Below, in pieces: positions 5,842-40,229 of a DNA stretch of 64,000 bases; position 1 is the stretch's first letter; each line of letters opens with the position of its first letter. The translations under genes were made by a program, and so were the position numbers. The stretch covers positions 145-64,144 of the forward strand of contig JBPPNF010000047.1 in NCBI GenBank assembly GCA_051306435.1, in the 5' to 3' direction. The notes below the pieces were generated by a model. The model worked only from the letters and a program-made list of their open reading frames with translations, was not told where the DNA came from and made no database searches. This stretch comes from Solirubrobacterales bacterium. GTDB lineage: Bacteria; Actinomycetota; Thermoleophilia; Solirubrobacterales; JACPNS01.

Positions 5842-5880
5842 GGAGCCAGCGTAAACCATGTCTTGTGTCAATATGACGTC

Positions 5881-24893: not shown

Positions 24894-25616
24894 CTAACCG
24901 TCTTGACGACGCCGAAGCTCCGCGACCAGCAGCTTCACATGCATGGCGCTGAGCAGATCTCGCATCGGTCCGTGCCCACGTTCAATCAGATCCGCAGCGT
25001 CATCGGCCGAGAGTTTGCCGGGCAGCTTCTCGGAGATCACGTCGACCTCGTCGCGCGCGAGGGCCTCGAGGTGGCGCATGTAGATCAGGGTGTCGTAGAT
25101 CGTGAAGCCGAGGGCTTCGCCGTAGCCGCTCTTGCGGAACCCGGAGATTGCTGTGAGGAACTCGGCATCGGGTTGGCTGTAGCGGACGCCGGCCTTGGTC
25201 TCATGCGGCTCAATCGCGCCGATGCGCTCGAATCCGTTGAGCACGTCCTCGGGCAGATCAAGCTTGGTCACCGCCTGCTTGCGCGTGATGCCCTTTCCGC
25301 TCGCGATCGCCTGTGAGCGCTGGAGCAGCACGTCGCCGAGCTCAAGCCGCGCCTCGACCTGATCGGGCTCGTTCTCGAGGATTCGCTTGATCACGTCGAG
25401 CGGCAGGTAGCGCTCTTCCTGAAGTCGCTTGATCAGCTTGATCCGGTCGACATACTCGGGCGAGTACCAGGCCATGTTGCGGCTGGTCTTGACCGGCGCG
25501 GGCAGCAGACCTTCGCGCAGGTAATGCTTGATCGTCGCGGCGGAGACTCCGCTCTGCTCGGCGAGCGCGGCCATGCGCAGGAGGCCGTCGGTGCTCGGCG
25601 TGGTGGTCCGGGTCAC
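24894..25616 (-). CDS. MerR family transcriptional regulator
   Basis: 240 aa. N-terminal HTH MAALAEQSGVSAATIKHYLREGLLP, followed by a long helical effector/dimerisation region. Its start overlaps the CoA-transferase stop by 4 nt. Confidence 0.8.
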   Translation of the reverse strand: MTRTTTPSTDGLLRMAALAEQSGVSAATIKHYLREGLLPAPVKTSRNMAWYSPEYVDRIKLIKRLQEERYLPLDVIKRILENEPDQVEARLELGDVLLQRSQAIASGKGITRKQAVTKLDLPEDVLNGFERIGAIEPHETKAGVRYSQPDAEFLTAISGFRKSGYGEALGFTIYDTLIYMRHLEALARDEVDVISEKLPGKLSADDAADLIERGHGPMRDLLSAMHVKLLVAELRRRQDG

Positions 25617-26833
25617 GACGTGGGGACTCCTGCCACGCCGGCGACGGCGCCAGATTCACGTAGCGAGGCGATTTCCTCGGCTGAGTATCCGATCGACTCA
25701 AGAACGGCATCCGTGTGCTCGCCGAATCCCGGTGCGGGCTCGCGACGGTCCGGGCGCGCGCCATCGATCACGAACGGCGGTGCGAGCTGGCCGACGGGAC
25801 CAATGCCCGGCTGGTCGACCTCAGTGACCATGCCGCGGGCCTTGACGAGATCAGATTCAAGCGCTTCGTCGATGCCCAGCACAGGTTCGATGCAGCAGTC
25901 GTGCTCGTCGTTGAAAGCGGCCCACTCCGCGCGGGTCTTCGTTTTGAAGACTTCTGCGATCACGCCCCAGCCGTCGCTGCCGGCGAGTTCGAACTGCTTC
26001 TCGATCAGATCCTCACGACCGACGCCGCGCGCGAACGCCTGCCAGAACTTCGGCTCGAGCGCTCCGCAGCTGACCCAGCCATCGGCGGCTTCATAAGGCA
26101 TGTAACAAACCCATTTGCCTGCGAGGTCGACGTCGCCGCGTTCTCGGGCGTCGCCGGCCAGCGCGGCGGCGGCCGGCATTGCCAGCCAGCTCAAAGCGCC
26201 ATCAGTCATTGAGATGTCGATTTCTGCGCCGATGCCCGTGGCGTTCTTCCTGACCAGAACGGCGAGGATCGCGATCGCGGCCATCTGCGCGCCGCCGCCG
26301 ATGTCGGCGATCTGGCCTGCGGCCTGAACCGGCGGGCCGCCCTTCGCTCCGGTCAGACCGAGCAGACCGTTCAGGCCGAGGTAATTCATGTCGTGTCCGG
26401 CGCGCAGGGTGAACGGGCCGTCCTGGCCGTATCCAGTGATCGCGCAGTAGATGACGCCCGGATTCACGGTCTTCATCTGGTCATATCCGACGTTCAGCTT
26501 GTCGAGCACGCCGGGACGAAAGGACTCAAGCACCACGTCGTGGTCGGCGACGAGCTTCAGGAGAATCTCTTTGCCGTCGTTCGACTTGAGGTCGAGCTGG
26601 ATCGACTGCTTGTTGCGGTTGAGCGCGTCGAACTGGACGCTGTGCGTGCCGCTCGCCTTTGCCGCTTCGCCGCCGGCATACGGAGTCGTCCAGCGCATGT
26701 AATCGCCCGCTCCGGTGTCTTCGACCTTCAGCACCTCTGCGCCGAGGTCGGCGAGAAGCAGTGAGCAGAACGGTCCGGGGAGCAGGCGCGAGAGGTCGAG
26801 GACTTTGACGCCCTTCAGCGGAAGATCAGACAT
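25613..26833 (-). CDS. family III CoA-transferase (CaiB/BaiF/racemase family)
   Basis: Start at ATG 26833 (MSDLPLKGVKVLDLSRLLPGPFCSLLLADLGAEVLKVE, the canonical family III N-terminus). 406 aa. Confidence 0.85.
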   Translation of the reverse strand: MSDLPLKGVKVLDLSRLLPGPFCSLLLADLGAEVLKVEDTGAGDYMRWTTPYAGGEAAKASGTHSVQFDALNRNKQSIQLDLKSNDGKEILLKLVADHDVVLESFRPGVLDKLNVGYDQMKTVNPGVIYCAITGYGQDGPFTLRAGHDMNYLGLNGLLGLTGAKGGPPVQAAGQIADIGGGAQMAAIAILAVLVRKNATGIGAEIDISMTDGALSWLAMPAAAALAGDARERGDVDLAGKWVCYMPYEAADGWVSCGALEPKFWQAFARGVGREDLIEKQFELAGSDGWGVIAEVFKTKTRAEWAAFNDEHDCCIEPVLGIDEALESDLVKARGMVTEVDQPGIGPVGQLAPPFVIDGARPDRREPAPGFGEHTDAVLESIGYSAEEIASLRESGAVAGVAGVPTS

Positions 26834-27719
26834 TGCGCGGCACTCCAAGCAGTTCGCGGGCTTCGGCGATCGTCGCGACCTTGCGGCCACCGGCCTCGAT
26901 CTGGCGCGCGGCTTCCTCGCAGAGGTCGCCGTTGCCCTTGCAGACGTCGCCGTTGGGCAGATAGAAGTTGTCTTCCAGACCAACACGGACGTTGCCGCCT
27001 TCGGCGATCGCGACGGGAACCAGATCCCACTGCTCGCGCGAGACGCCGACCATGCCCCAGTTGTTCACGCCATCGCCGCCGTGCCCGCCGGGCTGCGGAA
27101 CCTGACTCGCCATGTGCTTGAGGTTCTCCGGGCGCGCCGGGGTACCGCCAAGTACTCCCGTCACGAGCGAGATCTGCAGCGGCGACTCGAGAATTCCCAT
27201 GTCGATCAGCGGCTCGAGCGAGGCCAGGTGCCCCAGCTCGAAGCACTCGTGCTCGGGGCGGATGCCGTATTCGTTCATCGCAGTCAGGAACTGGATGATC
27301 GTGTCGAAGCTGTTCTCGAAGATGAAGCCGAAGATGAACTCTTTGCGACGCTTGGAGTACTTCGCATAGTTCATCGAGCCCATGTTCAGGGCCGCGATGT
27401 CGGGGCGGATCGCCTCGAGATACTCGAGGCGCTTCTCTACGGAGAGGCCGACCGCGCCGGTCGAGAAGTTGATGATCACGTCGCCGCATTCGGCCTTGAT
27501 CGCGTCGGTGATCTCGCGGTAATTCTCAATCTCGAAGCTCGGCGTTCCGTCGTGCTTGCGCGCGTGGATGTGGATCATCGCCGCGCCGGCGTCGACCGCG
27601 CTGCGCGCTTCGGCTGCGTACTCCTCCGGCGTATAGGGAATTGCCGGGTGTTGCTCCTTGTTGGCAACCACTCCGCTGATCGAGTTGGTGAGGATGCACG
27701 GCTTGTCAAATCCCGACAT
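26826..27719 (-). CDS. beta-keto acid cleavage enzyme family protein (BKACE/DUF849)
   Basis: Start at ATG 27719. PCILTNSISGV, IPYTPEEYAAEARSAVDAGAAMIHIHAR and RVGLEDN match the Kce-like TIM-barrel family with its Zn-binding HxH. Overlaps the CoA-transferase start by 8 nt. Confidence 0.8.
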   Translation of the reverse strand: MSGFDKPCILTNSISGVVANKEQHPAIPYTPEEYAAEARSAVDAGAAMIHIHARKHDGTPSFEIENYREITDAIKAECGDVIINFSTGAVGLSVEKRLEYLEAIRPDIAALNMGSMNYAKYSKRRKEFIFGFIFENSFDTIIQFLTAMNEYGIRPEHECFELGHLASLEPLIDMGILESPLQISLVTGVLGGTPARPENLKHMASQVPQPGGHGGDGVNNWGMVGVSREQWDLVPVAIAEGGNVRVGLEDNFYLPNGDVCKGNGDLCEEAARQIEAGGRKVATIAEARELLGVPRNV

Positions 27720-27732
27720 CAAGCGCTCCTTT

Positions 27733-27755
27733 GCTGCGCACCTCAGGTGTGCAAC
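27733..27755. promoter_or_regulatory. box 1: GCTGCGCACC-TCA-GGTGTGCAAC
   Basis: 10-3-10 inverted repeat with 2 arm mismatches. Lies 13 nt upstream of the BKACE start codon. Confidence 0.6.
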
Positions 27756-27796
27756 GAGAATTGTCAATGAAAAATGGCTTGTTCAAGGGGGTTGTT

Positions 27797-27819
27797 GCTG
27801 CACACCTCTGGTGAGCAGC
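27797..27819. promoter_or_regulatory. box 2: GCTGCACACC-TCT-GGTGAGCAGC
   Basis: 10-3-10 inverted repeat with 1 arm mismatch. Confidence 0.6.
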
Positions 27820-27889
27820 AGTTTGGCCATGGCCTGCTTCGCGGAGGCGGCCGTACGGCTGGTCGGTTGCGACCGCGGAGCCAAAACCC

Positions 27890-27912
27890 GCTGCACACCG
27901 GAGGTGTGCAGC
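27890..27912. promoter_or_regulatory. box 3: GCTGCACACC-GGA-GGTGTGCAGC
   Basis: Perfect 10-3-10 inverted repeat. Confidence 0.65.
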
Positions 27913-27953
27913 ACCGGACCGCATACCTAAGCCATTCTTGGCCGCAGGATCGT

Positions 27954-27976
27954 CCAGTTCACCAGAGGTGTGCAGC
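27954..27976. promoter_or_regulatory. box 4: CCAGTTCACC-AGA-GGTGTGCAGC (degenerate left arm)
   Basis: The right arm is identical to consensus. The left arm is degenerate (4 of 10 positions differ from consensus). Lies 16 nt downstream of the carboxyltransferase stop. Confidence 0.5.
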
Positions 27977-27992
27977 AGATAATCAAATCCGC

Positions 27993-29573
27993 TCATACAG
28001 GCATCACTCCGTGCTTCTTGTCCGGGCGGTCGACGTGCTTGTTCTCGGCCATCTCGAGGGCGCGGATGATGTGGTGGCGCGTCTCGCGTGGGTCGATCAC
28101 GTCGTCGATCATGCCGTTGCCGGCTGCGAGGTAGACGTCGATCATCTTCTGGGCCTCGGCGAGCAGTTCCTCGCGTTTGGCCTCGGGGTCCTCGGCGGCT
28201 TCGATGATCGAGCGACCGATGATGTTCACCGCGCCTTCGGCACCCATCACGCTGATCTCGGCGGTCGGCCATGCGTAGATTGCGTCCGGCTCATAGCCCG
28301 AGCCGTTCATCACGTAGTAGCCAGCGCCGTAACACTTGCGGATCAGGATCGTGACCTTCGGGACCGTCGCACGCGAGGTCGCGTACAAGAACTTCGCGCC
28401 GTGGCGGATGATCCCGGCCTCCTCGACCTTGCTGCCGACCATGAATCCGGGAACGTCCTGGAGATAGATCAGCGGGATTCCATACGCGTCGCAGAGGTTG
28501 ATGAAGCGTGCGGCCTTGTCGGCGGAGTCGTTGTCGAGGATTCCGCCCAGGTGCTTGGGCTGGTTTGCGACGATGCCGACGCTGCGGCCGTCCATCCGCG
28601 CGAAGCAGGTGATGATCGACTTCGCCCACTTCCCCTTCATGTCGAAGTACTCACCGTCGTCGACGATGTGCTTGATGATCTCGTACATGTCGTAGGGCTG
28701 CCGGCTGCTCTCGGGCAGGATGCTGAGCAGCTCTTCCGCGTGGCGGTTGACCGGGTCCTCGGTCGCCTTGATCGGCGGCTTCTCGCCGCTGTGCATCGGC
28801 ATGTAGGAGAGGTAGTCCTTGATCGACTGGATGCACTCGGCGTCGTCGCCACACTCCATGTCGGCGACGCCGCTCTTGCGGTTGTGAACCTTGTAGCCAC
28901 CGATCTCTTCGTCGGTGACGTCCTCGCCGGTTGCGGCCTTGACGAGGTGCGATCCGGCCAGCGCCATCGAGCCCTGGCCCTTGACCATCGGCAGAAAGTC
29001 GGTGAGCGCCGGGACATACGCGGTGCCGGCCGCGCACGGCCCCATGACTGCCGCGACCTGCGGGATGACCCCGCTCATCGTCACCTGTTCGCGGAAGAGG
29101 TGACCGGAGCCGGCGAACAACGATCCGACCGCTTCCTGAATGCGCGCGCCAGCCGAGTCGAGCAGCCAGATCATCGGCATGCGCTTGTTCAGGGCGAGTG
29201 CGCGCAGGCGGGAAAGCTTGACCTCGCCGGTGTAGCCCATCGATCCCGCCATCACGGTGAAGTCGTAGGCACCGACGCAGACCAGGCGGCCGTTGACCCG
29301 GCCGTAGCCGGTGATGACGCCGTCGGCCGGGGCGTCCACGCCCGCGAGCGCGCGCTGCGAGAAGTGCGGGCGCCCGTGCAGGCCGAACTCGACCCAGGTT
29401 CCTTCGTCGATCAACAGCTCGACGCGCTCGCGCGCCGTGAGCTTTCCACGCTCGTGCTGCTTGGCGATCTTTGCGTCGCCGCCGCCCTTGAGGTTGTGTT
29501 CGCGCTTGGCGAGCAGCTCATCGACGAGCTCCTCCATCTGCGACTTCAATTGAGTTGCTTCAGCGTCGTTCAT
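27993..29573 (-). CDS. acyl-CoA carboxylase carboxyltransferase (beta) subunit
   Basis: 526 aa. ERGKLTARERVELLIDEGTW, DGVITGYGRVNGR, YDFTVMAGSMG, DSAGARIQE and MGPCAAGTAYVPALTDF match the PccB/AccD carboxyl-transferase pattern. Confidence 0.85.
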   Translation of the reverse strand: MNDAEATQLKSQMEELVDELLAKREHNLKGGGDAKIAKQHERGKLTARERVELLIDEGTWVEFGLHGRPHFSQRALAGVDAPADGVITGYGRVNGRLVCVGAYDFTVMAGSMGYTGEVKLSRLRALALNKRMPMIWLLDSAGARIQEAVGSLFAGSGHLFREQVTMSGVIPQVAAVMGPCAAGTAYVPALTDFLPMVKGQGSMALAGSHLVKAATGEDVTDEEIGGYKVHNRKSGVADMECGDDAECIQSIKDYLSYMPMHSGEKPPIKATEDPVNRHAEELLSILPESSRQPYDMYEIIKHIVDDGEYFDMKGKWAKSIITCFARMDGRSVGIVANQPKHLGGILDNDSADKAARFINLCDAYGIPLIYLQDVPGFMVGSKVEEAGIIRHGAKFLYATSRATVPKVTILIRKCYGAGYYVMNGSGYEPDAIYAWPTAEISVMGAEGAVNIIGRSIIEAAEDPEAKREELLAEAQKMIDVYLAAGNGMIDDVIDPRETRHHIIRALEMAENKHVDRPDKKHGVMPV

Positions 29574-29576
29574 GCC

Positions 29577-30353
29577 TTATCGGCCCTTCCAGTTGGGTTC
29601 ACGCTTCTCGAAGAACGCCATTGCGCCCTCGATTGCGTCTTCAGTTCCGAGCGCCACGGTGAACTGCGTGTGCAGGTACTCAAGGGCGCTGAAGTACGGC
29701 AGGTCCTGTTGATTGACCATCGAGTCGTGGCCGAGGCGCATCACGACGGGGGCCTTTGCTGCGAGCTTCTCCGCCCAGGCGTCCGTTGCTTCGTCGAGTT
29801 CTTCGCGCGGGACGGCCTTGTTGATCAGGCCGAAATTCACCGCCTCATCGGCAGTCATCCGCTCGCCGAGCAGCAGCATCTCGTTGACCTTCTTGCGCGG
29901 GACGTTGCGGTAGATGATCGCCATGATCATGAACGGGAAGAGCCCGATGTTGATCTCGGGCGTAGAGAACTTCGCCGCGTCGGAGGAGACGATCAGGTCA
30001 CAGGCGAGCGCCACGCCCAGCCCCCCGGCGACCACGTGACCGTTTGCCTTGCAGATCGTCGGCTTGCCGAGTTCGGCGATCGCGCGGAAGAGATCGAGAA
30101 AGCGCGTCGTGCCGTAATGCTTGTGCGCGAGTGGCACGTCCTGCGAGAAGCCGGAGAGGTCGCCGCCGGCGCTGAAGACGTCGCCCGCGCCGGTCAGTAC
30201 GGCGACGCGCACTTCCGGATCGGTCTTTGCCTTGCCGAACGCGTCGACGAGGTCGTCGAGCATCGCGTGGCTCAGCGCGTTGCGCTTGTCCGGCTGGTTG
30301 AGAGTGATCGTCGCGACCCCACCCGCGACCTCGTAAAGAATATTTTCGTACAC
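29577..30353 (-). CDS. enoyl-CoA hydratase/isomerase (crotonase) family protein
   Basis: 258 aa with a GTG start at 30353. ATITLNQPDKRNAL, VAVLTGAGDVFSAGGDL and ANGHVVAGGLGVALACD are crotonase oxyanion-hole segments. Confidence 0.85.
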   Translation of the reverse strand: MYENILYEVAGGVATITLNQPDKRNALSHAMLDDLVDAFGKAKTDPEVRVAVLTGAGDVFSAGGDLSGFSQDVPLAHKHYGTTRFLDLFRAIAELGKPTICKANGHVVAGGLGVALACDLIVSSDAAKFSTPEINIGLFPFMIMAIIYRNVPRKKVNEMLLLGERMTADEAVNFGLINKAVPREELDEATDAWAEKLAAKAPVVMRLGHDSMVNQQDLPYFSALEYLHTQFTVALGTEDAIEGAMAFFEKREPNWKGR

Positions 30354-30370
30354 GCCCGCTCCAGTAAGAA

Positions 30371-30391
30371 GTAAGAAGTTCGACTTCTCAC
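30371..30391. promoter_or_regulatory. 21-bp palindromic operator candidate, site 1: GTAAGAAGT-TCG-ACTTCTCAC
   Basis: 17 nt from the GTG start of crotonase 29577..30353. Preceded by an extra GTAAGAA direct half-repeat (30364..30370). Confidence 0.6.
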
Positions 30392-30414
30392 TCTAACGGA
30401 TCGGTTCGGTGCGC

Positions 30415-31215
30415 TCAGGGACGCGGATCGCCGGAGTCGAAAACCGGCTTCTCGCCGGCCTGCGCGGCCTCGATCGCACCCTTGAAATCATCGTGCGACT
30501 GCGCCAGCGCCATGTACGAAGAAACCATGTCGTAGTGCGTGTCGCGCGGCATCGACTCGGCTGTATGGACAGCTCGTTTGATCAGGCGCTGGGCGAGCTG
30601 CGGGCCGGCGGCGAGCTTCTCGGCCAGGGCGTAAGTGACTTCAGTGAGCTCGTCGCGCGGAACGGACTGGTTGACAAGGCCCCATTCCGCCGCCTGCTCG
30701 CCGTTGATCACTTTGCCGGTCAGGAGCAGCTCGAGCGCGCGCGCCGGTCCGACCAGGTGCGTGAGCAGCCAGGCGCCGCCGTCGCCGGGGACCAGCCCGA
30801 GATTCACGTAGGCCTCGCCGATCTTCGCCTCGTTCGCCGCGATGCGGAGATCGCACAGCAGCGCCATGTCAAACCCCGCCCCCATCGCCGCTCCGTTGAT
30901 CATCGCGATCACAGGTTGGGGCACGCGCTGGAGCGAGCGCTGAACGCGATGGACGTGGTCGCGCAGGAACTCCTTCTTGGCCAGCGGTCCTGACTCTGTC
31001 GCGAGCGTCGCGAACTCACCGCCGGCGCTGAAGGCCTTCCCGGCGCCTGTGACCACGATCGTGTGCACGGATCTGTCGGCCGCGAGCCGGTCAAGAGCGT
31101 CGGCCCATTCGTCGACGAACTCGCCGTCGAAGGCGTTGAGCCTGTCGGGCTTGTTCAGCGTCAGCGTGGCGACATGCGTCGCCGCGTCGACCTCGGTGAG
31201 GATCACATCGGACAT
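30415..31215 (-). CDS. enoyl-CoA hydratase/isomerase (crotonase) family protein
   Basis: Start at ATG 31215 (MSDVILTEVDAATHVATLTLNKPDRLNAF). VVTGAGKAFSAGGEF and INGAAMGAGFDMALLCD. Confidence 0.85.
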   Translation of the reverse strand: MSDVILTEVDAATHVATLTLNKPDRLNAFDGEFVDEWADALDRLAADRSVHTIVVTGAGKAFSAGGEFATLATESGPLAKKEFLRDHVHRVQRSLQRVPQPVIAMINGAAMGAGFDMALLCDLRIAANEAKIGEAYVNLGLVPGDGGAWLLTHLVGPARALELLLTGKVINGEQAAEWGLVNQSVPRDELTEVTYALAEKLAAGPQLAQRLIKRAVHTAESMPRDTHYDMVSSYMALAQSHDDFKGAIEAAQAGEKPVFDSGDPRP

Positions 31216-31289
31216 GGCTGGCGACTCTACCGGAGGGGGTTGATTGGTAGGTTGCGCCGGTAACGGCAAGATTCTTCCGGGGAGAGCAC

Positions 31290-31967
31290 ATGGCTGGAGA
31301 GATAGTCGAGTTCGCGTCCAATGGCGGCACCGCCGAGGGGTACCTGGCAACGCCCGAAACACCAAATGGCAAAGCCCTGGTCGTGATCCAGGAGTGGTGG
31401 GGTCTCGTCGACGAGATCAAGGGCATCGCCGATCGCTATGCAGACGCCGGCTACTACGCCCTGGTACCGGACCACTTCCATGGCAACTCGACCGAACAGC
31501 CCGACGAGGCCGAGCAGCAGATGATGGCCATGAACGTCTCCGAGACCGAGAAGGAACTGATCGGCGCGGTTGACTTCATCGCAGAGAAGGCCGGCACCGA
31601 AATCGTCGGCGCGACGGGCTACTGCATCGGCGGGGCCCTGTGCCTGTTTGCCGCTGCGCTGAACCCAAAGGTCGCAGCGAGCTCGAGCTTCTATTATGTC
31701 TTCCCACACGGCAAGCCCGAATGGAGCAAGATCGCGGGACCGGTGCTGATGCACTTCGGAACCGAGGACGCCTTCATTTCGGCCAGCGACATCGAGGCCC
31801 TGACCTCGGAGATGAAAGAAGCTGGCGTGGAACTCGTCGTCGAGTCCTACGAAGGAGCCGGGCACGCCTTCTGCAACACCGCCAACCGCCTCGGCACCTA
31901 CAACGAAGAATACGCCGAGCTGGCCTTCGCGCGCAATCTCGAGTTCTTTGACAAAAACCTCGGCTGA
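31290..31967 (+). CDS. dienelactone hydrolase family protein
   Basis: 225 aa. ALVVIQEWWGL, nucleophile elbow GYCIGG and C-terminal GAGHAF are typical DLH features. Confidence 0.8.
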   Translation: MAGEIVEFASNGGTAEGYLATPETPNGKALVVIQEWWGLVDEIKGIADRYADAGYYALVPDHFHGNSTEQPDEAEQQMMAMNVSETEKELIGAVDFIAEKAGTEIVGATGYCIGGALCLFAAALNPKVAASSSFYYVFPHGKPEWSKIAGPVLMHFGTEDAFISASDIEALTSEMKEAGVELVVESYEGAGHAFCNTANRLGTYNEEYAELAFARNLEFFDKNLG

Positions 31968-31989
31968 ACCGGTCGCTAGATTCGCGCCC

Positions 31990-32538
31990 ATGGCGCGGAG
32001 CATTGCCAAATCACTGGCGGCGGCACTTCTGGCTGGCGCGCTGCTGGCCGGATGCGGCGGCGGGGATCAGTCCTTCACCACGCCGACCTACCCGTTCAGC
32101 TTCGACTACCCCGCAGGCTGGAGGCTCTCGCGCGGCGCCAACTTCACCTACGGCTCGAGCGATGCCGCGGTGCGCTCGGTCTCGGCTGCGCTCAAAGAGC
32201 CGTACGACCAGGTGACGATCACGCAGTACAAGCTGAAGAAGACCCTGCCGGCCGGCACCAACGGCTACCAGCCCGAGGTCGACCGCATCGTCGCGCGTCT
32301 GACCAAACAGGCCGGCGGCAGCGCAGGCGACGCGAAGGTTGTGAAATACGGCGGGCAGCCCGGCTACCGGTACGTCGTCGAGTACCCGGGCGGCAACAAC
32401 CTCACGCTCGAGAACAAGCTGACCTTCCTGTTCAAGGGTCAGTACGAGTTTCAGGTCAACTGTCAGTCGTCCAAAGAGAATCGCGAAGCCCTGAATGAGG
32501 GCTGCGATCAAATTCTCGATTCGCTGAAGTTCAAGTAG
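31990..32538 (+). CDS. lipoprotein of unknown function
   Basis: Start at ATG 31990. Lipobox LLAGC followed by GGGD. No catalytic motif recognised. Confidence 0.55.
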   Translation: MARSIAKSLAAALLAGALLAGCGGGDQSFTTPTYPFSFDYPAGWRLSRGANFTYGSSDAAVRSVSAALKEPYDQVTITQYKLKKTLPAGTNGYQPEVDRIVARLTKQAGGSAGDAKVVKYGGQPGYRYVVEYPGGNNLTLENKLTFLFKGQYEFQVNCQSSKENREALNEGCDQILDSLKFK

Positions 32539-32542
32539 GCAG

Positions 32543-34663
32543 TTACTTGATGCTGCTCCAAGGTCCGTTGCCTTCGCGGTATTCGATCGCGCTGACCTTG
32601 AGATTGTTCGGCGGCCCGGTGCCGCGCTTGAGCTTGTAGGTCTCGGATGTCACGCCTGCGGCCGTCGCGAACGTAAAGATCGCGCTCGGCCCCGGCGAGG
32701 CCGTATACATCTTGCCGCTCTCGGCTTTGACGAGAACCGGTCCCCGCATGGCCTTCGCGACGATCCGCACCCGCCCCGGCTTCGCGGACCAGATCTTCAC
32801 GGTGAGCGACGTGTCGACGAGCCCGTCGCGCACATTGCGACCGCCGACCATCGACAATACTTGCGCAGGTGCTCGAGCGACCATCAGCGTTGACGAGATC
32901 CCGGTGTTCGGGTGAACGCGCTTGGACTCATCCTGAAGGTGCATAGAAAATGAGTTGCTCTCGACCAACCACGCGCTCGGGACCGAGTTGCAGCCCGGCG
33001 CGCCCGACGGTAGGATCGTTCCAGCCTGCCCGGTGTGGAAAAGACATGTCGGCGAGTACACCACGTGCGAATCGATCGGGCGCACCGGAGACACGTAGGC
33101 GCGGTTGAGGTTCGGGTTCCAGAACTCCGTTTCATAGAAGGTCGTCGGATCGGCGTCGGACGGCAGCAGCATCGCCACTTGCTGCGGCGTTGCGCGACTG
33201 ACCCAGTTCAGCGGCGTCGGTTCACGGACGCGCGCCGAGTCGGAGTAGAGCTGTTGGTAGGACCACGCCTTCGCCTGGCTGATCAGCAGGATGAAGAGCG
33301 GCAGAAAGACGGCAAGCGCGCGTCCGTATCGCGCGAGGTCCTCGCGACCCGCCGGGGCCACGCTCGCAACGTAACCGAGCCCCAGGACCAGCGTGAGTCC
33401 GGCCAGAACCATGCCGATGTGCGGAAGCATCCCCTCATTCGAATCCAGCAGGAAGCCCAGGTACGCCTGACCGAACGCATCAAGCGAGAACGGCACCGCC
33501 ACAGCATCGGACTGCATTCCGCTCACGATCACGACCGCGACGGCCACTGAAACTGCGGCGGCCTTCCAGGTGACCCGACCGAACGAGGCGACGAGGCCGA
33601 GAAAAAAGATCGGCCCGAGGTAGAACATGTAACGCTCGTAGAAAATGTGTAGCTCGCGCCAGTGGAGTGGATTGACCGCCGAGAACCAGGTCATCTGCAG
33701 AATGAACGCGACTGTCGCGACCAGAGCGAGCGCGACCAACGCACCGATCAGAGGATCTCGGCGATTTTCGCGCGAGCCGAACAGGGAGAATGTGGCGATC
33801 GCGGGCACGATTGCGCAGAGCAAGTAGACGTCCGCCGTGAAGGCCTTGAACCAGAACCAGATCTCTCCGACACCCGGCAGTTCGAGGGACGTGACCGAGG
33901 CATAGATCCCGAGCGACGCGCGACCACGAACGAGGACGTAAACCAGACCCAGAAGTGCGATCCCACTCAACATCGCCAGCAGAGCGCGCTGCGCGCGAAG
34001 AAACGCAATGCGCTCACCCGGCCCGCGCATCATCGCAACCAACAGGAGCGTCCCGCCAAAGATCGGCAGGAGCAACGCGAACTGCAATCGCGTGAACAGG
34101 GCAAACAGAGTGAGTGCCACCGCGAGGGCCGCAGACCTCCACCCCGGCCTTGCGAGCGCATGAATCATTCCGACAAATGCCGCGGCAGCCGCCGGATAGG
34201 CAAGGCTTTCAGTGCTGACGATCCCGGCATAGTTCAGCGCCGGGACGCTGATCGCGAAGACCGCCGCCAGCATCGCGTACTTCTGCGCGACAAACCAGCG
34301 CGCGGCCACGTAAACCGGGAAGGCGACCGCGCAGATCATCGCGGCGTTGATCGTCTTGACGACTTCGTACTGAGAGGCGACTGAATTCGCGAGCCTGAAC
34401 GCCGGCGCTATCACCACTGGGTAGAGCCAGATACCTCCACCAGTAGGAGCCCCCCGCCAGCTGAAGCCGGTCCCCGCAGCGAGACTCTTGGCCACGCCCC
34501 AGTAGAGAAATTCATCGACGAAGCGCCGCGGCGTCACGACCCCAAGCGCGAGCACAGCAATCAGAACGCTCGCGATCGCCCAGAGCGCAACAACAAACCA
34601 CAGATCGCGCCAGCGCCACCCGGGCACCTGCGCCTCCGGCTCGATCAGAGCAGGGTCTGCCAT
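32543..34663 (-). CDS. GT-C-like polytopic membrane protein (candidate polyprenyl-phosphate-sugar-dependent glycosyltransferase), paralog A
   Basis: 706 aa. Has an acidic RRFVDEFLYW motif after TM1, about 12 further TM helices, and a ~230-aa non-membrane C-terminal domain. This architecture resembles ArnT/PMT_2-type enzymes. Assignment is by architecture only. Confidence 0.5.
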   Translation of the reverse strand: MADPALIEPEAQVPGWRWRDLWFVVALWAIASVLIAVLALGVVTPRRFVDEFLYWGVAKSLAAGTGFSWRGAPTGGGIWLYPVVIAPAFRLANSVASQYEVVKTINAAMICAVAFPVYVAARWFVAQKYAMLAAVFAISVPALNYAGIVSTESLAYPAAAAAFVGMIHALARPGWRSAALAVALTLFALFTRLQFALLLPIFGGTLLLVAMMRGPGERIAFLRAQRALLAMLSGIALLGLVYVLVRGRASLGIYASVTSLELPGVGEIWFWFKAFTADVYLLCAIVPAIATFSLFGSRENRRDPLIGALVALALVATVAFILQMTWFSAVNPLHWRELHIFYERYMFYLGPIFFLGLVASFGRVTWKAAAVSVAVAVVIVSGMQSDAVAVPFSLDAFGQAYLGFLLDSNEGMLPHIGMVLAGLTLVLGLGYVASVAPAGREDLARYGRALAVFLPLFILLISQAKAWSYQQLYSDSARVREPTPLNWVSRATPQQVAMLLPSDADPTTFYETEFWNPNLNRAYVSPVRPIDSHVVYSPTCLFHTGQAGTILPSGAPGCNSVPSAWLVESNSFSMHLQDESKRVHPNTGISSTLMVARAPAQVLSMVGGRNVRDGLVDTSLTVKIWSAKPGRVRIVAKAMRGPVLVKAESGKMYTASPGPSAIFTFATAAGVTSETYKLKRGTGPPNNLKVSAIEYREGNGPWSSIK

Positions 34664-36759
34664 TTTCCGTCAGGACCCGAGACGCTCATGTCATCCACGG
34701 AGACGTCCGCCGGTAGTCCGCCCGGCGTCTTCACGGTGAAGGTCGTGTAGACCTCGTTGGCCGGCACGTCGATCGTCAGCGTGCCGCTCTTGCCCGCGTT
34801 TATGACCGTCGATCCGCCGCCCCGGGCTTTCACGACAACGCTTGACCTGCTGGCACGCAGCTTCAAACGCAGCTTGCCGGGCTTGTCGAGGAAGGTGCGC
34901 GTGTTCAGAGCGTTCTGCACGATGCCGGTGCGCACTGCTCGTCCGTCCACCAGCGACAGAATGCGTGGCGGCGGCTCGCCGACCATCAGAGTGAGCGTGG
35001 GCCACGACGTCGACGGGTGCACGCGCTTGACCTCGTCCTTCAGGTGCATCGTCACCGTGTCGCTGCGCAGATACCAGGCGTTGGGCACGGTGTCGCAGCC
35101 GGTGCCGAGGATCTCGCCGGTCTCTGACCAGTCGAACTTGCAGTTCGGCGAGTACATGACCGGAGAGACGATCGGCTTCGCATCCGTTGCGAACGCGCGC
35201 ACCACGCGGTTGTTCCAGAACTCGGTAGTGAAGTACGAGAGCGGATCATCGGTCGAGGTGACAATCATCCCGACTTCTTCATCGGTGTTTTTGTCGATGA
35301 AGTTGGCGGGCTTGGGGAACTGCTCGAAGGCCTGTGTCGAGTACTTCCGCGCGTCGTTCCAGGTCTTCACCTGCGCCTGCACGAGCCAGACGAACGTGAA
35401 GGCGATCAGCACCCAGTAGAGGATCTTCCTCACCAGTTTGTGGTCGATCGTCGAGAGCACGTAGACCAGACCGACAAGCAGCGTGACGCGGGCGAGCGTC
35501 ATGCCGATCTTCGGCGCGACGTCGGGGTGCGTGCTCATGTAACTGGCGATCGTGGTCAGGCCGAACGAGTCGTACGAGAACGGCACGAGCACGGCATCTG
35601 TCTGGAAACCGCTGACGATCGCGGTCGCCGCCGCTACGGACACGAGCGCGGAGGTCCAGGAGACGCGGTTCCACGACGCGACAAGGCCGAGGAAGAAGAT
35701 CGGCCCGAGGTAGAACATGTAGCGCTCGTAGAAGATGTGCCGCGTGCGCCACTGGTACGGGTTGGTCGCCGAGAACCAGGAGATCTGCGCGATGAAGAAG
35801 AGTGACGCCATCACCGCGAGCGCGAGCAGCGCACCGATCAGTGGATCGCGGCGGTTCTCGGCTCGTCCGAACATCGCCATCGTCGCGATCACCGGGACGA
35901 TTCCGCAGAGCAGATAGACGTCCGCCGTGAAGGCCTTGACCCAGAACCAGAGCGCCGAGAATTCAAGCGCGACGCCGTCGAAGACGCCCTGGTAGAGCCC
36001 GAATGCGCCCTTGCCCTGGGCGAGAATCGCGATGCTGCCGAGCACCCCGAGCACAGCGATCGTGAGCCATACCGAGCGCCGTTCTTTGAGGTACCGCGTG
36101 CGGCTGCCGGGCTCGGCCATCAGTGCCGCGAGCAGCAACGTGCCGAGGAAGATCGGCAGCAGCACGACAAACTGCGTGCGGGCGAGCATCGCCAGAACGA
36201 TCATCGCGAAGGCAAGCAACGTGTTGCGCGGCCGCGGCCGCGCCAGCGCGAGCAGGACCGCTCCGCAGGCGGCGGTGAAGATGAAGTAGCCGAGGTTCTC
36301 CGTGCCGATGATTCCCGCGTAGTTCATCGCCGGTACCGAAACGACGAGAATCGCCACGACCAGCGCGCGCCAGCGGTCCAGGTAGAGGCGCCCGAGCAGG
36401 TAGGCAGGGAAGATCGTTCCGACGATCATCATCGAGTTGATCAGGTGCACGCCGGTGTACTGACCCGGCACCGTCTTGGCAAACCAGAACGCCGGAGCGA
36501 GCAACATCGGGTAGAGCGTGCTGCGCATGTTCAGGTCTGCGCCGCGCCAGGTCATGCCGTCGCCGCCGGCCCAGTTCTTGCCCAGCGCCCAGAAGAGGAA
36601 CTCGTCCTGGTAGCGACGCGGCGATTCATGGCCGGTCGCAAGCAGGTAGATGATCACCGTGAGCAGAGCCCAGATGCCGGTGATGATCCAAAGCTCAAAG
36701 CCGCGTTCGCGCAGCCAGGCGCCGGCGTCGCTGCGCCATTCTGCAAAGTTCGCTTTCAC
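34645..36759 (-). CDS. GT-C-like polytopic membrane protein, paralog B
   Basis: 704 aa. Has RRYQDEFLFW after TM1 and shares long identical blocks with paralog A (IFYERYMFYLGPIFFLGLVAS, KAFTADVYLLC). Its stop overlaps the paralog A start by 19 nt. Confidence 0.5.
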   Translation of the reverse strand: MKANFAEWRSDAGAWLRERGFELWIITGIWALLTVIIYLLATGHESPRRYQDEFLFWALGKNWAGGDGMTWRGADLNMRSTLYPMLLAPAFWFAKTVPGQYTGVHLINSMMIVGTIFPAYLLGRLYLDRWRALVVAILVVSVPAMNYAGIIGTENLGYFIFTAACGAVLLALARPRPRNTLLAFAMIVLAMLARTQFVVLLPIFLGTLLLAALMAEPGSRTRYLKERRSVWLTIAVLGVLGSIAILAQGKGAFGLYQGVFDGVALEFSALWFWVKAFTADVYLLCGIVPVIATMAMFGRAENRRDPLIGALLALAVMASLFFIAQISWFSATNPYQWRTRHIFYERYMFYLGPIFFLGLVASWNRVSWTSALVSVAAATAIVSGFQTDAVLVPFSYDSFGLTTIASYMSTHPDVAPKIGMTLARVTLLVGLVYVLSTIDHKLVRKILYWVLIAFTFVWLVQAQVKTWNDARKYSTQAFEQFPKPANFIDKNTDEEVGMIVTSTDDPLSYFTTEFWNNRVVRAFATDAKPIVSPVMYSPNCKFDWSETGEILGTGCDTVPNAWYLRSDTVTMHLKDEVKRVHPSTSWPTLTLMVGEPPPRILSLVDGRAVRTGIVQNALNTRTFLDKPGKLRLKLRASRSSVVVKARGGGSTVINAGKSGTLTIDVPANEVYTTFTVKTPGGLPADVSVDDMSVSGPDGKWQTLL

Positions 36760-36815
36760 GTCCCGGCGAGACTAAACGCGGATGCGGCCGCAGGTTCCAG
36801 CGCACTTCGGATAAA

Positions 36816-36836
36816 GTGAGAACTAGGACTTCTTAC
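36816..36836. promoter_or_regulatory. 21-bp palindromic operator candidate, site 2: GTGAGAACT-AGG-ACTTCTTAC
   Basis: 40 nt upstream of the acyl-CoA dehydrogenase ATG. Inverted orientation relative to site 1, with a flanking TTTCCAC (the complement of the extra half-repeat). Confidence 0.55.
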
Positions 36837-36876
36837 TTTCCACTTTCACCGAGCCAGACCCTGCGGAGGATCAACG

Positions 36877-38058
36877 ATGGAATCAGCCACGATCAAGCCC
36901 GACTTTGCCGCCAGCACACGGCACTTCATCTTCACCGAGGAGCACGAGCAGCTGCGCGAGACGATCGAGCGCTTTGTCAAGACGGAGCTCGCGCCCCACG
37001 CGGATGAGTGGGAAGAGACCACGTTCCCGGACTCCGTGGTCAAGCGTATGGGCGATCTCGGATTCCTCGGCCTCACGCAGCCCGAGGAGTACGGCGGCCA
37101 GGGCGGCGACTACTTCACCTCCGTCGTGCGCGCCGAGGCGATGGCCTACTCGAACAGCGGCGGCCTGAACATGGGCATCGCCGTCCAGACCGACATGGCG
37201 ATGCCGCCGATCGCCAAGTTCGGGTCTGAGGAGATCAAGCAGAAGTACTTGAAGGGCGCGATCGCCGGCGACATCATTCTCGCGCTGGGCATCACCGAGC
37301 CCGACGCCGGATCCGACGTCGCCGCGATCAAGACCCGCGCCGTGCGCGACGGCGACGACTACGTGATCAACGGCTCAAAGGTCTTCATCACCAACGGCCT
37401 GCGCGCCGACGCGATTGTGCTCGTCACCAAGACCGACGACTCGAAGGGCTTCGAGGGATTCACGCTTTTCATCGTCGACACCGACACTCCCGGCTTCGAG
37501 GTCTCGCGAAAGCTCGAAAAGCTCGGCATGCACGCTTCTGACACCGCGGAGTTGTCCTTCACCGACATGCGCGTCCCGGCGGCGAACATGCTCGGCGAAG
37601 AGGGCAAGGGCTTCTACAACATCATGTGGGAGCTGCAGAGCGAGCGCATGGTCGCCGCCTGCGCGTGCGTGGCCGGTGCGCAGCGTGTGCTCGAGCAGAC
37701 GATGGAATACGCCAAGGAGCGCGAAGCCTTCGGCCGCCCGATCGGCAAGTTCCAGGCGATCCGCCACAAGATCGCCACGATGAGCATGAAGATCGAGGCA
37801 GCGCGCCAGCTCAACTACTACACGGCGTGGCTCGTCGATCAGGGCCAGTACCCGGTGCGCGAGATCTCACAGGCGAAGCTCTACTCCTCGCAGATCGGCT
37901 GCGAAGTCACCGACGAGTGCCTGCAGATCCACGGCGGCTGGGGCTACATGAAGGAGTACGGCATCGAGCGCGCGTGGCGTGACATGCGTTTGAACCGCAT
38001 CGGTGCTGGAACTGATGAAGTGATGCTTGATGTGATCGGGCGCAGTTACGGGTTCTAG
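36877..38058 (+). CDS. acyl-CoA dehydrogenase
   Basis: 393 aa. GITEPDAGSDVAAIKTRA, FITNG and the C-terminal QIHGGWGYMKEYGIERAWRDMRLNRIGAGTDEV carry the ACAD signature, including the catalytic Glu context. Confidence 0.9.
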   Translation: MESATIKPDFAASTRHFIFTEEHEQLRETIERFVKTELAPHADEWEETTFPDSVVKRMGDLGFLGLTQPEEYGGQGGDYFTSVVRAEAMAYSNSGGLNMGIAVQTDMAMPPIAKFGSEEIKQKYLKGAIAGDIILALGITEPDAGSDVAAIKTRAVRDGDDYVINGSKVFITNGLRADAIVLVTKTDDSKGFEGFTLFIVDTDTPGFEVSRKLEKLGMHASDTAELSFTDMRVPAANMLGEEGKGFYNIMWELQSERMVAACACVAGAQRVLEQTMEYAKEREAFGRPIGKFQAIRHKIATMSMKIEAARQLNYYTAWLVDQGQYPVREISQAKLYSSQIGCEVTDECLQIHGGWGYMKEYGIERAWRDMRLNRIGAGTDEVMLDVIGRSYGF

Positions 38059-38230
38059 TTGACGAGCGGGGCGCCACGGTCAGCAGGAATCCGCCTGCTG
38101 CGAGCGGGATGACGGCGCCGATGTACGCGTTGTGAGCGGGTGTCAGCGATGGTCGCGTTGTCCGAACCGAGCGACTGCGAGATCGTGAGGATCACCGCCA
38201 CCTGGTCGGCGACCATTGCCAGGATGCAAC
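38059..38230 (-). pseudogene. possible frameshifted remnant of a membrane-protein gene
   Basis: On the minus strand, one frame reads CILAMVADQVAVILTISQSLGSDNATIAD with coding-like GC-rich third positions. After a frame change near 38140 it continues as PAHNAYIGAVIPLAAGGFLLTVAPRSS (TM-helix-like). No intact ORF with a plausible start exists. Confidence 0.3.
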
Positions 38231-38269
38231 GCGAGGCGTGGCGCAGACAAATCTCCGCGTGTGCGAGAA

Positions 38270-38290
38270 GTAAGAAGTTCCACATCTCAC
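38270..38290. promoter_or_regulatory. 21-bp palindromic operator candidate, site 3: GTAAGAAGT-TCC-ACATCTCAC
   Basis: 89 nt upstream of the SDR ATG. Preceded by GAGAA (a partial extra half-repeat). Confidence 0.55.
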
Positions 38291-38379
38291 TTCAACTGCA
38301 GAGCGGATAAGCTCCCACGCTGGATTTGCACCTTCTTTTCTCGATCCTCCAACCCACCAAGAAAGAGATCTAAATCACC

Positions 38380-39225
38380 ATGAGTGACCTCGTCATTCCC
38401 GGTCTGCTTGAAGGCAAGACCGCCATCGTCACCGGTTCGGCCCGCGGCATCGGCCGCTCCACCGCAGAGCTGCTCGCAGGCTCAGGCGCAAACGTTCTGA
38501 TCACCGACCTCGACGGCGACATCGCAGAGCAGGCTTCTGGCGAGATCGCCGGCAACACCGTCTCGATCGGCGGCGACATCACCAAGAACGGCGAGCCCGC
38601 CAACATCGTCAAGAAGGCGATCGATGAGTTCGGCCAGATCGACATCCTGATCAACAACGCCGGCTACACCTGGGACGGCCCGGTCCACAAGATCACGGAC
38701 GAGCAGTGGGACGCAATGCTCAACGTCCACGTCAAGGCCCCCTTCCAGATGATCCGCGAAGCCGCCCCCTACTTCCGCGAGCCGGCCAAGGCTGAGCGCG
38801 CAGAGGGCAAGGAAGTCTTCCGCAAGATCGTCAACGTGTCTTCGACTTCCGGAATGTTCGGCAACGCCGGTCAGGCCAACTACAGCTCCGGCAAGCTCGG
38901 CGTCGTCGGTCTGACCAAGACTGTCGCCAAGGAGTGGGGTCAGTTCAAGGTCAATGTCAACGCAGTCGCTTTCGGTTTCGTCGACACGCGCCTGACGGCC
39001 GCCAAGGAAGAGGCAGAGACGATCGAGCGTGACGGCGAGCAGATTCAGCTCGGTATCCCGGAGCAGATGCGCCAGATGGCGAACATGATGATTCCGCTCG
39101 GCCGCCCGGCAACCCCTGAAGAGGCCGCTGCGCCGGTCTACTTCCTGGCAAGCCCGCTCTCCAACTACGTGCACGGTCAGGTGCTCAACATCACCGGCGG
39201 CATGTTCGGCGGTATGGCGTTCTAG
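38380..39225 (+). CDS. SDR family oxidoreductase (FabG-like)
   Basis: 281 aa. TGSARGIG cofactor motif, NNAG, and the catalytic YSSGK (YxxxK). Confidence 0.9.
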   Translation: MSDLVIPGLLEGKTAIVTGSARGIGRSTAELLAGSGANVLITDLDGDIAEQASGEIAGNTVSIGGDITKNGEPANIVKKAIDEFGQIDILINNAGYTWDGPVHKITDEQWDAMLNVHVKAPFQMIREAAPYFREPAKAERAEGKEVFRKIVNVSSTSGMFGNAGQANYSSGKLGVVGLTKTVAKEWGQFKVNVNAVAFGFVDTRLTAAKEEAETIERDGEQIQLGIPEQMRQMANMMIPLGRPATPEEAAAPVYFLASPLSNYVHGQVLNITGGMFGGMAF

Positions 39226-39261
39226 TTCGCCAGTTGCTGCTCGAAGTTCCAGGCAGTTATC

Positions 39262-39298
39262 AAAAGGCCCTTCCGCTCGCGCGGGAGGGCCTTTTTCT
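39262..39298 (+). terminator. intrinsic terminator after the SDR gene
   Basis: AAAAGGCCCTTCCGC-TCGC-GCGGGAGGGCCTTTTT followed by CTTG. GC-rich stem plus T-run. Confidence 0.8.
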
Positions 39299-39329
39299 TG
39301 CCCTCCGGCCGTGGGCATAGATTTCGGCC

Positions 39330-40229
39330 ATGGCGGAGATCGACACACCGGTGTTGCGAACACCCCTGCCCGGGGGATCCGAAGGGGCGCGCGTGACCCT
39401 GCGGCCGTTCTCCACCGGCGAGATCGCCGTGCCGCGCGGCTTCCTGCACCGCATCGACGAACGCTTCGCCCACCAGCGCGCGCTCTGGCGCGGGGCGCGG
39501 AAGAAGTACGACCACTGGACCCCGTGTCCGATTTTCCTGATCGAGCATCCAACCGCTGGGCGAGTTCTGGTTGACACGGGAGTCCCCGCTGCGTCGGCCC
39601 ACGATCCGAAGGCCGGACTCGGCGCCCTTGCCGGTCGGATGTATGCAGTGCGGGCCACCGAGGATCAGCCGCTGCCGGCGCGGATGCGCGCGCTGGGGAT
39701 CCCGCGCGGCGGGATTGACGTCGTCGTGATGACGCATCTGCACTTTGATCACGCCGGCGCGCTCAATGAGATTGAGGATGCCGTCGTCGTGGTCAGCAAG
39801 AAGGAGTGGCGCAGCGCGAATGCCGGTAAGGCGCTGGCGCGCGGCTACGTGCGGCGCGAGTTCGATCTGGCGCATGACTACCGGCTGGTGGACTTTGACG
39901 ATCCGACGGTCAATTCTTTTGCTTCGTTCGGACGATCGGTCGACCTCTTCGGGGACGGCTCAGTGATGCTCGTCTCCACCCCCGGACATTCGAGCGGCCA
40001 CATGTCAGTGGTGGTGCGGCTGAAGGACCGCGAGTGCCTGATCGCCGGCGACGCGATCTACACGCGGCGCTCACTCGATGCCGGCGACCTGCCGCTGATC
40101 ATCGCCGACGAGCACAACTACAAACGCTCAGTCCGCGAGATCCGCGCCTACAAACAGATGACCCCCAGCGCCCTGATCATCCCTGGCCACGACGCCGATC
40201 GCTTCGCGTCGCTCGACGAGCTCTACTGA
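39330..40229 (+). CDS. MBL-fold metallo-hydrolase (N-acyl-homoserine-lactonase-like)
   Basis: 299 aa. HLHFDHAG (HxHxDH) and later TPGHSSGH metal ligands. Overall length and layout resemble AiiA-type lactonases. Confidence 0.7.
   Translation: MAEIDTPVLRTPLPGGSEGARVTLRPFSTGEIAVPRGFLHRIDERFAHQRALWRGARKKYDHWTPCPIFLIEHPTAGRVLVDTGVPAASAHDPKAGLGALAGRMYAVRATEDQPLPARMRALGIPRGGIDVVVMTHLHFDHAGALNEIEDAVVVVSKKEWRSANAGKALARGYVRREFDLAHDYRLVDFDDPTVNSFASFGRSVDLFGDGSVMLVSTPGHSSGHMSVVVRLKDRECLIAGDAIYTRRSLDAGDLPLIIADEHNYKRSVREIRAYKQMTPSALIIPGHDADRFASLDELY

Follow-up and report, generated by a model that had tools for sequence, protein, structure and literature searches.

A conserved 23-bp palindrome as the predicted operator of a MerR-family regulator in an acyl-CoA gene cluster of Thermoleophilia

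Introduction

LiuR is a short MerR-family protein of about 130-140 amino acids, and several other members of the family, among them HspR/HAIR, CarH/LitR and GlnR/TnrA, are repressors with operators that overlap the core promoter. In Proteobacteria, LiuR represses the leucine/isovalerate (liu) and branched-chain acyl-CoA genes (Kazakov et al. 2009, summarised in PMC3223726 and PMC5343134). In actinobacteria, the MerR-family regulator of ftsZ, FtsR (Rv1828), binds a 25-bp inverted repeat as a dimer and activates from position -73 or from the promoter spacer (PMC6683498). Here we analysed a 64-kb stretch of DNA (the window; 64,000 nucleotides of contig JBPPNF010000047.1) from the metagenome-assembled genome of an uncultured soil actinobacterium of the Solirubrobacterales (Thermoleophilia), in which a palindrome occurs three times in front of genes of acyl-CoA metabolism, in a cluster that also encodes a MerR-family protein (24894-25616, minus strand).

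Thermoleophilia are abundant soil bacteria, and we know of no experimentally described case of transcriptional regulation in this class. From the conservation of the palindrome and its association with one MerR subfamily, we consider that the three copies are probably operators for the MerR protein of the cluster, which would use them to control a small local regulon by repression.

Results

Palindromic sites in the window

The sequence-only reading of the window had reported a 21-bp palindrome at three places, GTAAGAAGTTCGACTTCTCAC at 30371-30391 (site 1), GTGAGAACTAGGACTTCTTAC at 36816-36836 (site 2) and GTAAGAAGTTCCACATCTCAC at 38270-38290 (site 3), lying 17, 40 and 89 nt, respectively, before the start codons of an enoyl-CoA hydratase (crotonase; ECH) gene followed by a carboxyltransferase (Carboxyl_trans) gene, a three-domain acyl-CoA dehydrogenase (ACAD) gene and an SDR gene. 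All three sequences, their coordinates, the distances and the identities of the targets proved correct. The symmetric unit is 23 bp long, AGTRRGAAGT-N3-ACTTCYYACT, and so one base longer on each side than had been described. In this form, the predicted operator at site 1 covers 30370..30392 and reads AGTGAGAAGT-CGA-ACTTCTTACT on the minus strand, which is the direction of the operon, with the GTG of the crotonase 16 nt downstream. The predicted operator at site 2 (36815..36837, plus strand; AGTGAGAACT-AGG-ACTTCTTACT) is placed in a divergent region between a membrane-protein gene (start at 36759, minus strand) and the acyl-CoA dehydrogenase gene (ATG at 36877), and that at site 3 (38269..38291, plus strand) reads AGTAAGAAGT-TCC-ACATCTCACT, with one mismatch in its right half.

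The impression that the motif is rare in the window also held. When the 64 kb were scanned with the degenerate pattern, allowing at most two mismatches, only the three sites matched, and 100 dinucleotide-preserving shuffles scanned in the same way gave an expected count of 0.00. Allowing up to four mismatches added two weak matches, at 16390 and 40892, both at the four-mismatch limit, and the extra matches of a scan with the 23-bp consensus were frame-shifted copies of the three known sites only.

The flanks of the palindrome are asymmetric: with the sites aligned in one orientation, a hexamer ending in AGT stands on one side and a third, direct half-site, offset by 7 bp, on the other. The extra half-repeat that had been seen on one flank is therefore present, and it is kept in orthologous sites. 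It reads TCTTACT at site 1 (30363..30369, minus strand; 7 bp offset from the proximal half-site), TTCCACT at site 2 (36838..36844, plus strand) and TTCTCGC at site 3, where the AGT-ending hexamer is TGAAGT. Position counts show T-Y-Y-N-A-C conserved just after the palindrome. The 23-bp unit falls within the 18-25 bp or so that are typical of MerR-family inverted repeats, and its GGAAG and CTTCC cores are centred 10 bp apart, or one helical turn, which is the spacing expected for a dimer that contacts consecutive major grooves on the same side of the helix.

Conservation and genome-wide distribution

The window MerR is 100% identical to a protein of a Solirubrobacterales metagenome-assembled genome. 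Its close homologs all come from Thermoleophilia, and we used homologs with 85, 77, 69 and 51% identity to it to retrieve orthologous loci. The order of the operon is kept in all of these loci, and in all of them the palindrome stands upstream of the first operon gene, retained within intergenic regions that vary from 66 to about 220 nt and whose sequence has otherwise diverged.

We then searched the genomes of 185,579 species, one per species and at the DNA level only, with the strict pattern AGTRRGAASTNNNACTTCYTACT. The scan yielded 88 loci, comprising 65 of Thermoleophilia type, 11 from Myxococcota and 12 from unrelated genomes, and about 17 chance matches were estimated for it under uniform base composition. 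The 12 unrelated loci, eleven of which are low in G+C, are without genes of the cluster, in agreement with the chance estimate. Every one of the 65 Thermoleophilia-type matches lies inside the same gene cluster, with one of the cluster genes directly after it. When divergent sites are assigned to both of their genes, the gene immediately downstream is the carboxyltransferase gene (CT) in 30 cases, the first crotonase gene of the operon (ECH1) in 18, the ACAD gene in 16, the membrane-protein gene in 10 and the BKACE gene in 3; ten of the 16 ACAD sites are divergent with the membrane-protein gene. A complete Solirubrobacterales chromosome of 3.57 Mb (L050) contains one strict match, at its ACAD gene.

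Sites orthologous to site 1, in front of ECH1, were found with diverged flanks in L001-L004, L024, L026, L043, L047, L054, L058 and L062, and sites in front of the ACAD gene in L010, L014, L031, L040, L051, L058, L062, L065, L075 and L084. A single site between directly divergent ACAD and ECH genes in L005 is a clear counterpart of site 2. A relaxed scan of the fetched loci retrieved further conserved ACAD sites with a degenerate left half, AGTAAACAGT-N3-ACTTCCTACT, and none in shuffled sequence. The distribution test that the sequence-only reading had called for was thus run, and the motif turned out to be placed neither at random nor in coding regions, strict matches in Thermoleophilia genomes being confined to the cluster. 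Retention of the palindrome before orthologous genes in dozens of Thermoleophilia genomes, across diverged flanks, supports the proposal of that reading that the sites form a dedicated set of transcription-factor operators for acyl-CoA genes.

The same data bear on the explanation that the palindrome is a hairpin in the RNA of the 5' leader (an attenuator or translational element), or else a dispersed repeat with no regulatory role, to which we give almost no credence. The RNA of site 1 does fold better than shuffled sequence (z = -2.85), as that of any palindrome would, but no such excess over shuffles was seen for the leaders of sites 2 and 3, and a search of Rfam gave no match. What is conserved across two phyla is the identity of the bases and not just their pairing: the non-pairing positions C9/C15 are stable in ten ACAD sites, and the AGTAAACAGT variant, with its three mismatches, recurs in more than 10 loci. 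The sites also occur in both orientations relative to the genes and in divergent regions. As for a dispersed repeat, this form of the explanation is excluded because the copies are confined to the cluster.

Association with the MerR-family protein

The operon behind site 1 has the gene at 24894-25616 as its last regulator gene, and this gene was present in 17/17 Thermoleophilia loci that reach further than the CoA-transferase or BKACE gene. In Myxococcota (Polyangia), 8 of the 11 loci from the scan carry a homolog with 34-44% identity to the window MerR, and in 6 of those 8 the palindrome, found by the DNA pattern alone, abuts the merR start codon. The genes around these sites bear no relation to the Thermoleophilia cluster and typically form an operon of merR with a gene for a chlorophyllase/PETase-like hydrolase. 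Sampling that started from the protein placed the core motif directly upstream of merR in 3 of 4 Myxococcota homolog loci. The recognition helix, TIKHYLREGLLP with the general form SGV(S/P)AATIKHYLREGLLP, is almost invariant across both phyla, so that motif and MerR occur together across genomes with the DNA-reading residues kept, as expected of a MerR-family operator. Given this near-invariance, we take the MerR of the cluster, and not a TetR encoded outside it, to be the probable cognate factor. Among the window open reading frames (ORFs) scanned, no other regulator was found within about 20 kb of the cluster, a LuxR-type two-component pair being about 20 kb off.

The protein has 240 amino acids and matches Pfam MerR_1 (PF13411) with E = 4.4e-24, which identifies a MerR-type winged helix-turn-helix (HTH). 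Its AlphaFold2 model (predicted local distance difference test score of 85) shows an N-terminal MerR winged helix and a long helix, then a small helix-helix-hairpin unit and, at the C-terminus, a helical region. About residues 112-166 make up a second MerR-like module, which is degenerate; the C-terminal half alone gives a weak MerR_1 match there (E = 0.0017), and homologs of the protein have faint precomputed matches to Pfam Rv1828_C. Its best NCBIfam matches are FtsR, HspR and MerR at 42-43 bits, all far below the cut-offs. Searched by sequence profile and by fold, the C-terminal region matched neither a solved ligand-binding domain nor the C-terminal structure of Rv1828, and all solved matches in the fold search other than 2dg6 (for example CarH and GlnR) cover the DNA-binding domain only.

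The Myxococcota loci with the motif are L020, L021, L033, L042, L046, L048, L081, L089 and L095-L097. A dienelactone hydrolase (DLH)-type hydrolase near the Thermoleophilia cluster and the hydrolase operons of Myxococcota hint at an ester or lactone connection. In a Kofleriaceae locus (L007), about five tandem heptads of RGAAGT type run into a palindrome at 3020-3085, in a divergent region upstream of a gene for a sigma-54 activator with an FHA domain, and a second site lies at 6680-6735, flanked by a GntR gene on one side and a gene for a protein with a Lon N-terminal domain on the other; the 7.6 kb retrieved from this locus contain no MerR homolog.

Promoter geometry and proposed mechanism

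In the main promoter class of the relatives, TTGACN stands 20-21 nt upstream of the palindrome (24 of 50 CT, ECH and BKACE sites, with unrelated spacer sequences), and in several Myxococcota loci 22 nt upstream. At a spacing of 17-18 bp it is followed by a YARAGT or TANNNA hexamer that overlaps the first one to three bases of the operator. The AGT-ending hexamer on the flank of the palindrome is TAGAGT in 8 of 18 ECH1 sites and YARAGT at most sites. In the window, the corresponding candidate -10 elements are TAGAGT at site 1 (30390..30395, minus strand), whose last three bases are the first three of the palindrome, and TAAAGT at the edge of site 2 (36812..36817, plus strand). At many of the CT sites and of the merR sites of Myxococcota, just 1-5 nt separate the palindrome from the start codon. 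The centre of the dyad lies about 32-34 nt from the -35 element, or 20-24 nt in a second promoter class; judging from the sequences of relatives, it is thus not centred in a spacer of 19-20 bp, the arrangement of classical MerR activators. In both classes the operator lies over the predicted core promoter or transcription start, with the dyad 20-34 nt from the -35 element, and this favours repression. The two TTGACN phasing classes are about one helical turn apart.

In the mechanism that we propose, a MerR homodimer would bind the palindromes, with the two cores on one face of the helix. The regulon would comprise the operon of crotonase, carboxyltransferase, BKACE, CoA-transferase and MerR, the ACAD gene and, in the lineage of the window, a pair of SDR and lactonase genes; the merR gene being part of the operon behind site 1, the regulator would control its own synthesis. 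At sites 1 and 2 the operator would begin inside the -10-like hexamer and cover the predicted transcription start, so that bound MerR would block RNA polymerase and repress the genes. A metabolite of the pathway, bound by the C-terminal half of MerR, would then release the repressor from the DNA, in the way that has been proposed for LiuR of Proteobacteria (PMC3223726).

Points against this reading and alternative explanations

Several observations weigh against this reading. The genome-wide scan used a strict pattern, and weaker sites elsewhere in these genomes would be missed by it. In L098, a Myxococcota homolog shares the recognition helix, but no copy of the motif lies within 4 kb. A scan with an E. 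coli-type consensus found no promoter at the three window sites, which are also without TTGACN, so the repressor geometry rests on the relatives. In the second promoter class, only 8-9 nt (12 nt in Myxococcota) separate TTGACN from the palindrome that follows it, a placement that shifts the operator relative to the promoter and puts it over the -10 region. For several ACAD and membrane-protein genes, a TACTNT hexamer, identified by reading the flanking sequences directly, closes the palindrome at its distal end and could serve as an alternative -10 element. A TetR gene lies near the cluster in two relatives (L005 and L006), two to three genes downstream of MerR. Finally, the organism is uncultured, and binding by MerR and its control of expression are predictions.

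In the L098 locus, the called start of the homolog looks truncated, and a different, GC-rich palindrome, GTGGCGCCAC, is found upstream at 3890-4010.

The TetR genes bear on the possibility that a different factor, such as a TetR-family protein encoded elsewhere, reads the palindrome and that the MerR gene is a passenger of the operon. Acyl-CoA clusters of Actinobacteria are often under TetR control, and the liu regulator of Streptomyces, SCO2775, is itself a TetR protein. Across genomes, the linkage of a TetR-family gene to the motif that operators of the KstR, KstR2, FadR or SCO2775 type would call for was not found, a TetR gene occurring only in L005 and L006; the window ORFs scanned contain none, nor do the genes called in L001-L004, all of which keep the motif. 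In the second phylum, moreover, promoters of MerR homologs carry the motif, with unrelated genes around them, and the recognition helix of MerR is conserved in step with the motif. We therefore judge this alternative very improbable. The sequence-only reading had left the choice between MerR and an outside TetR open, and the position in the operon, the 17/17 loci and the Myxococcota merR starts favour the former and disfavour the latter.

The hexamer at the distal end of the palindrome bears on another possibility, in which the same MerR binds the sites as a classical activator, sitting in an over-long spacer between -35 and -10 and untwisting the DNA on ligand binding. Most characterised MerR-family proteins are activators of this kind (PMC6683498). 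The distal palindrome end and two flanking bases form TACTNT (TANNNT) at most ACAD sites and at site 2, and if this were the real -10 element the operator would lie in the spacer, as it does for those activators. The distance of the dyad from the -35 element (about 32-34 nt, or 20-24 nt) is far from the roughly 10 nt of MerR-type promoters, though, and the palindrome is not directly preceded by a TTGACA-like hexamer. Where the start codon follows within 1-5 nt, as at many CT and Myxococcota merR sites, there is no room for a downstream -10 element and a transcription start. Repressors are also well known in the MerR family, as PMC3223726 notes for proteobacterial LiuR. On balance we regard activation as unlikely, and repression by the MerR of the cluster as the better account of the sites.

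Site 3 and the insertion that carries it

Site 3 stands at the 3' end of an insertion of about 225 bp (38065..38290) between the ACAD stop codon and the SDR promoter. In an alignment with five relatives (L065, L010, L051, L014 and L040), the spacer between the ACAD and SDR genes is about 100 nt long and contains no palindrome. A conserved block in the spacer of the relatives, TAAGCTCCCGCGC, is presumably the -10 region of the SDR gene, and within it the window has a predicted -10-like element, TAAGCT (38308..38313, plus strand), in invariant or near-invariant columns of the alignment. Site 3 lies 17 nt upstream of this conserved element and would hence overlap the predicted -35 region. Its nearest counterpart in sequence is site 1, with 92% identity over 26 nt, and apart from the site itself the insertion matched nothing in the window or in related loci by blastn and blastx. 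An ORF of 76 amino acids on the minus strand (38055-38285), which starts inside the palindrome, was rejected as a gene, having an Arg-rich tail and no homolog in related loci.

The inclusion of the SDR gene in the regulon thus stands as far as the presence of a site goes, but its ancestral membership does not, the site being missing in the closest relatives. Since site 3 and the insertion are limited to the lineage of the window, the pair of SDR (38380-39225, plus strand) and metallo-beta-lactamase-fold lactonase-like gene (39330-40229, plus strand), together target 3 (38380..40229), seems to be a recent addition to the regulon. Less confidence attaches to the function of site 3 than to that of the other two sites.

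Genes of the cluster and its surroundings

The enzymes of target operon 1 are encoded on the minus strand at 25613..30353, in a gene order that recurs in L001-L005 and in many genome loci: ECH1 (29577-30353) comes first, followed by the carboxyltransferase (27993-29573), BKACE (26826-27767) and a family III CoA-transferase (25613 to about 26830). A nitrilase-superfamily (CN_hydrolase) gene (24057-24884, minus strand) comes after the MerR gene. On its other side, site 1 is bordered by a second crotonase gene (30415 to about 31215), from which a DLH gene (31290-31967, plus strand) diverges. Minus-strand ORFs at 31227-32511 were not retained as genes; they have no Pfam match, and the real gene there is the dienelactone hydrolase on the plus strand. 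Target 2 is the ACAD gene (36877-38058, plus strand). The gene divergent from it around site 2 encodes a PMT_2-like membrane protein (34645-36759, minus strand) and is a possible co-target, given ten orthologous divergent arrangements.

Two paralogous genes for PMT_2-like membrane proteins (about 705 amino acids; 32543-36759) separate the halves of the cluster in the lineage of the window, and in L005, L011, L038, L039 and L074 one operator lies between ACAD and ECH genes that diverge directly from each other. High-GC3 ORFs (rich in G+C at third codon positions) that diverge from the CT gene in relatives have Ser/Arg/Pro-rich products and were judged to be antisense shadows of the real plus-strand gene, not members of the regulon.

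The suggested link to leucine or isovalerate catabolism was not borne out. That pathway would call for isovaleryl-CoA dehydrogenase, both subunits of methylcrotonyl-CoA carboxylase, methylglutaconyl-CoA hydratase and 3-hydroxy-3-methylglutaryl-CoA (HMG-CoA) lyase. Neither a biotin carboxylase nor an HMG-CoA lyase was found among the window ORFs scanned, and the cluster has BKACE and a family III CoA-transferase instead. None of the window enzymes, including the ACAD, carboxyltransferase and crotonase, reaches the cut-off of an NCBIfam equivalog.

Other neighbours in the window are unrelated, namely EgtD-like/EgtB-like ergothioneine genes (48379-50726), a B12-dependent methionine synthase (2212-6237), a type III glutamine synthetase (11244-13379) and a LuxR-type response regulator with a histidine kinase (57672-60436).

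Discussion

The analysis provides a concrete predicted regulator-operator pair that is directly testable, with support from about 60 genomes and, independently, from a second phylum. The genes for crotonase, carboxyltransferase, BKACE, CoA-transferase, ACAD and, here, SDR and the lactonase-like protein stand out as a set under predicted common control, which gives a handle on the pathway, and the analysis offers an apparent example of a regulon that gains a member through a small insertion bearing a copy of the operator. No new kind of mechanism is revealed; the conservation of a factor-operator pair across phyla and the two-module architecture of the regulator add a modest interest.

A wider reading would make the protein a member of an uncharacterised MerR subfamily common to Thermoleophilia and Polyangia, with tandem winged-helix modules resembling SCO5550/2dg6, in which recognition helix and 23-bp operator stayed near-identical across the two phyla as the regulator came to control different esterase, lactonase and acyl-CoA genes, and which uses an unusual binding mode; taken as a whole, we hold this to be a long shot. 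It is likewise doubtful that the third half-site, the Kofleriaceae heptads and the two -35 phasings point to a higher-order, register-shifting or second-module assembly and not to a simple dimer. On this wider reading the effector might be a metabolite derived from an ester, a lactone or an acyl-CoA, a suggestion that we make with the same reserve.

Among described proteins, FtsR resembles the window MerR in its size (about 240-250 amino acids) and in combining an N-terminal MerR HTH with an extra C-terminal domain. We ruled out that the two are the same: the window MerR scores 43 bits against the cut-off of 150 of the FtsR equivalog NF050798, the FtsR operator before ftsZ (AACCCTAAAGTAAAGGTTGAGGGTA, 25 bp) is unrelated to the motif of the window, and FtsR targets cell division genes, whereas the targets here are acyl-CoA genes.

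SCO5550 of Streptomyces coelicolor (PDB 2dg6), a protein of solved structure that is functionally uncharacterised, is the best PDB-chain match to the single window sequence (E = 1.2e-9). In a profile search it is level with the MerR 4ua1, and no other solved structure gave a full-length alignment. The recognition helix of SCO5550, SGVSTATIKYYLREGLLP, is almost identical to that of the window MerR, but identity over the fold alignment is 18% and the TM-score is low (0.25-0.28). Literature searches on SCO5550/2DG6 and on the motif strings gave nothing relevant, so that we found no operator or regulon reported for this protein, and a Streptomyces DNA affinity purification sequencing (DAP-seq) preprint does not mention it.

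With HspR/HAIR, CarH/LitR and GlnR/TnrA, the proposed system would share the use of a MerR-type winged HTH for steric repression and not for activation by DNA distortion; it differs from them in operators, sensor domains and regulons.

The comparison with LiuR, which the sequence-only reading had raised, holds as an analogy, and orthology seems unlikely. On the side of difference, the window protein is 240 amino acids long and includes a degenerate second MerR-like module as well as a C-terminal region of helices, no NCBIfam model names it LiuR, and its cluster contains BKACE, a family III CoA-transferase and nearby lactonase/DLH hydrolases, with biotin carboxylase and HMG-CoA lyase not found in the ORFs scanned. 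On the side of likeness, a MerR-family factor is predicted to repress an acyl-CoA catabolic cluster with acyl-CoA dehydrogenase, carboxyltransferase and crotonase genes, palindromic operators stand at several promoters, and the regulator is encoded within the cluster that it would regulate. The system of the window is probably an uncharacterised example of an ordinary gene switch, one that would work in the manner of LiuR.

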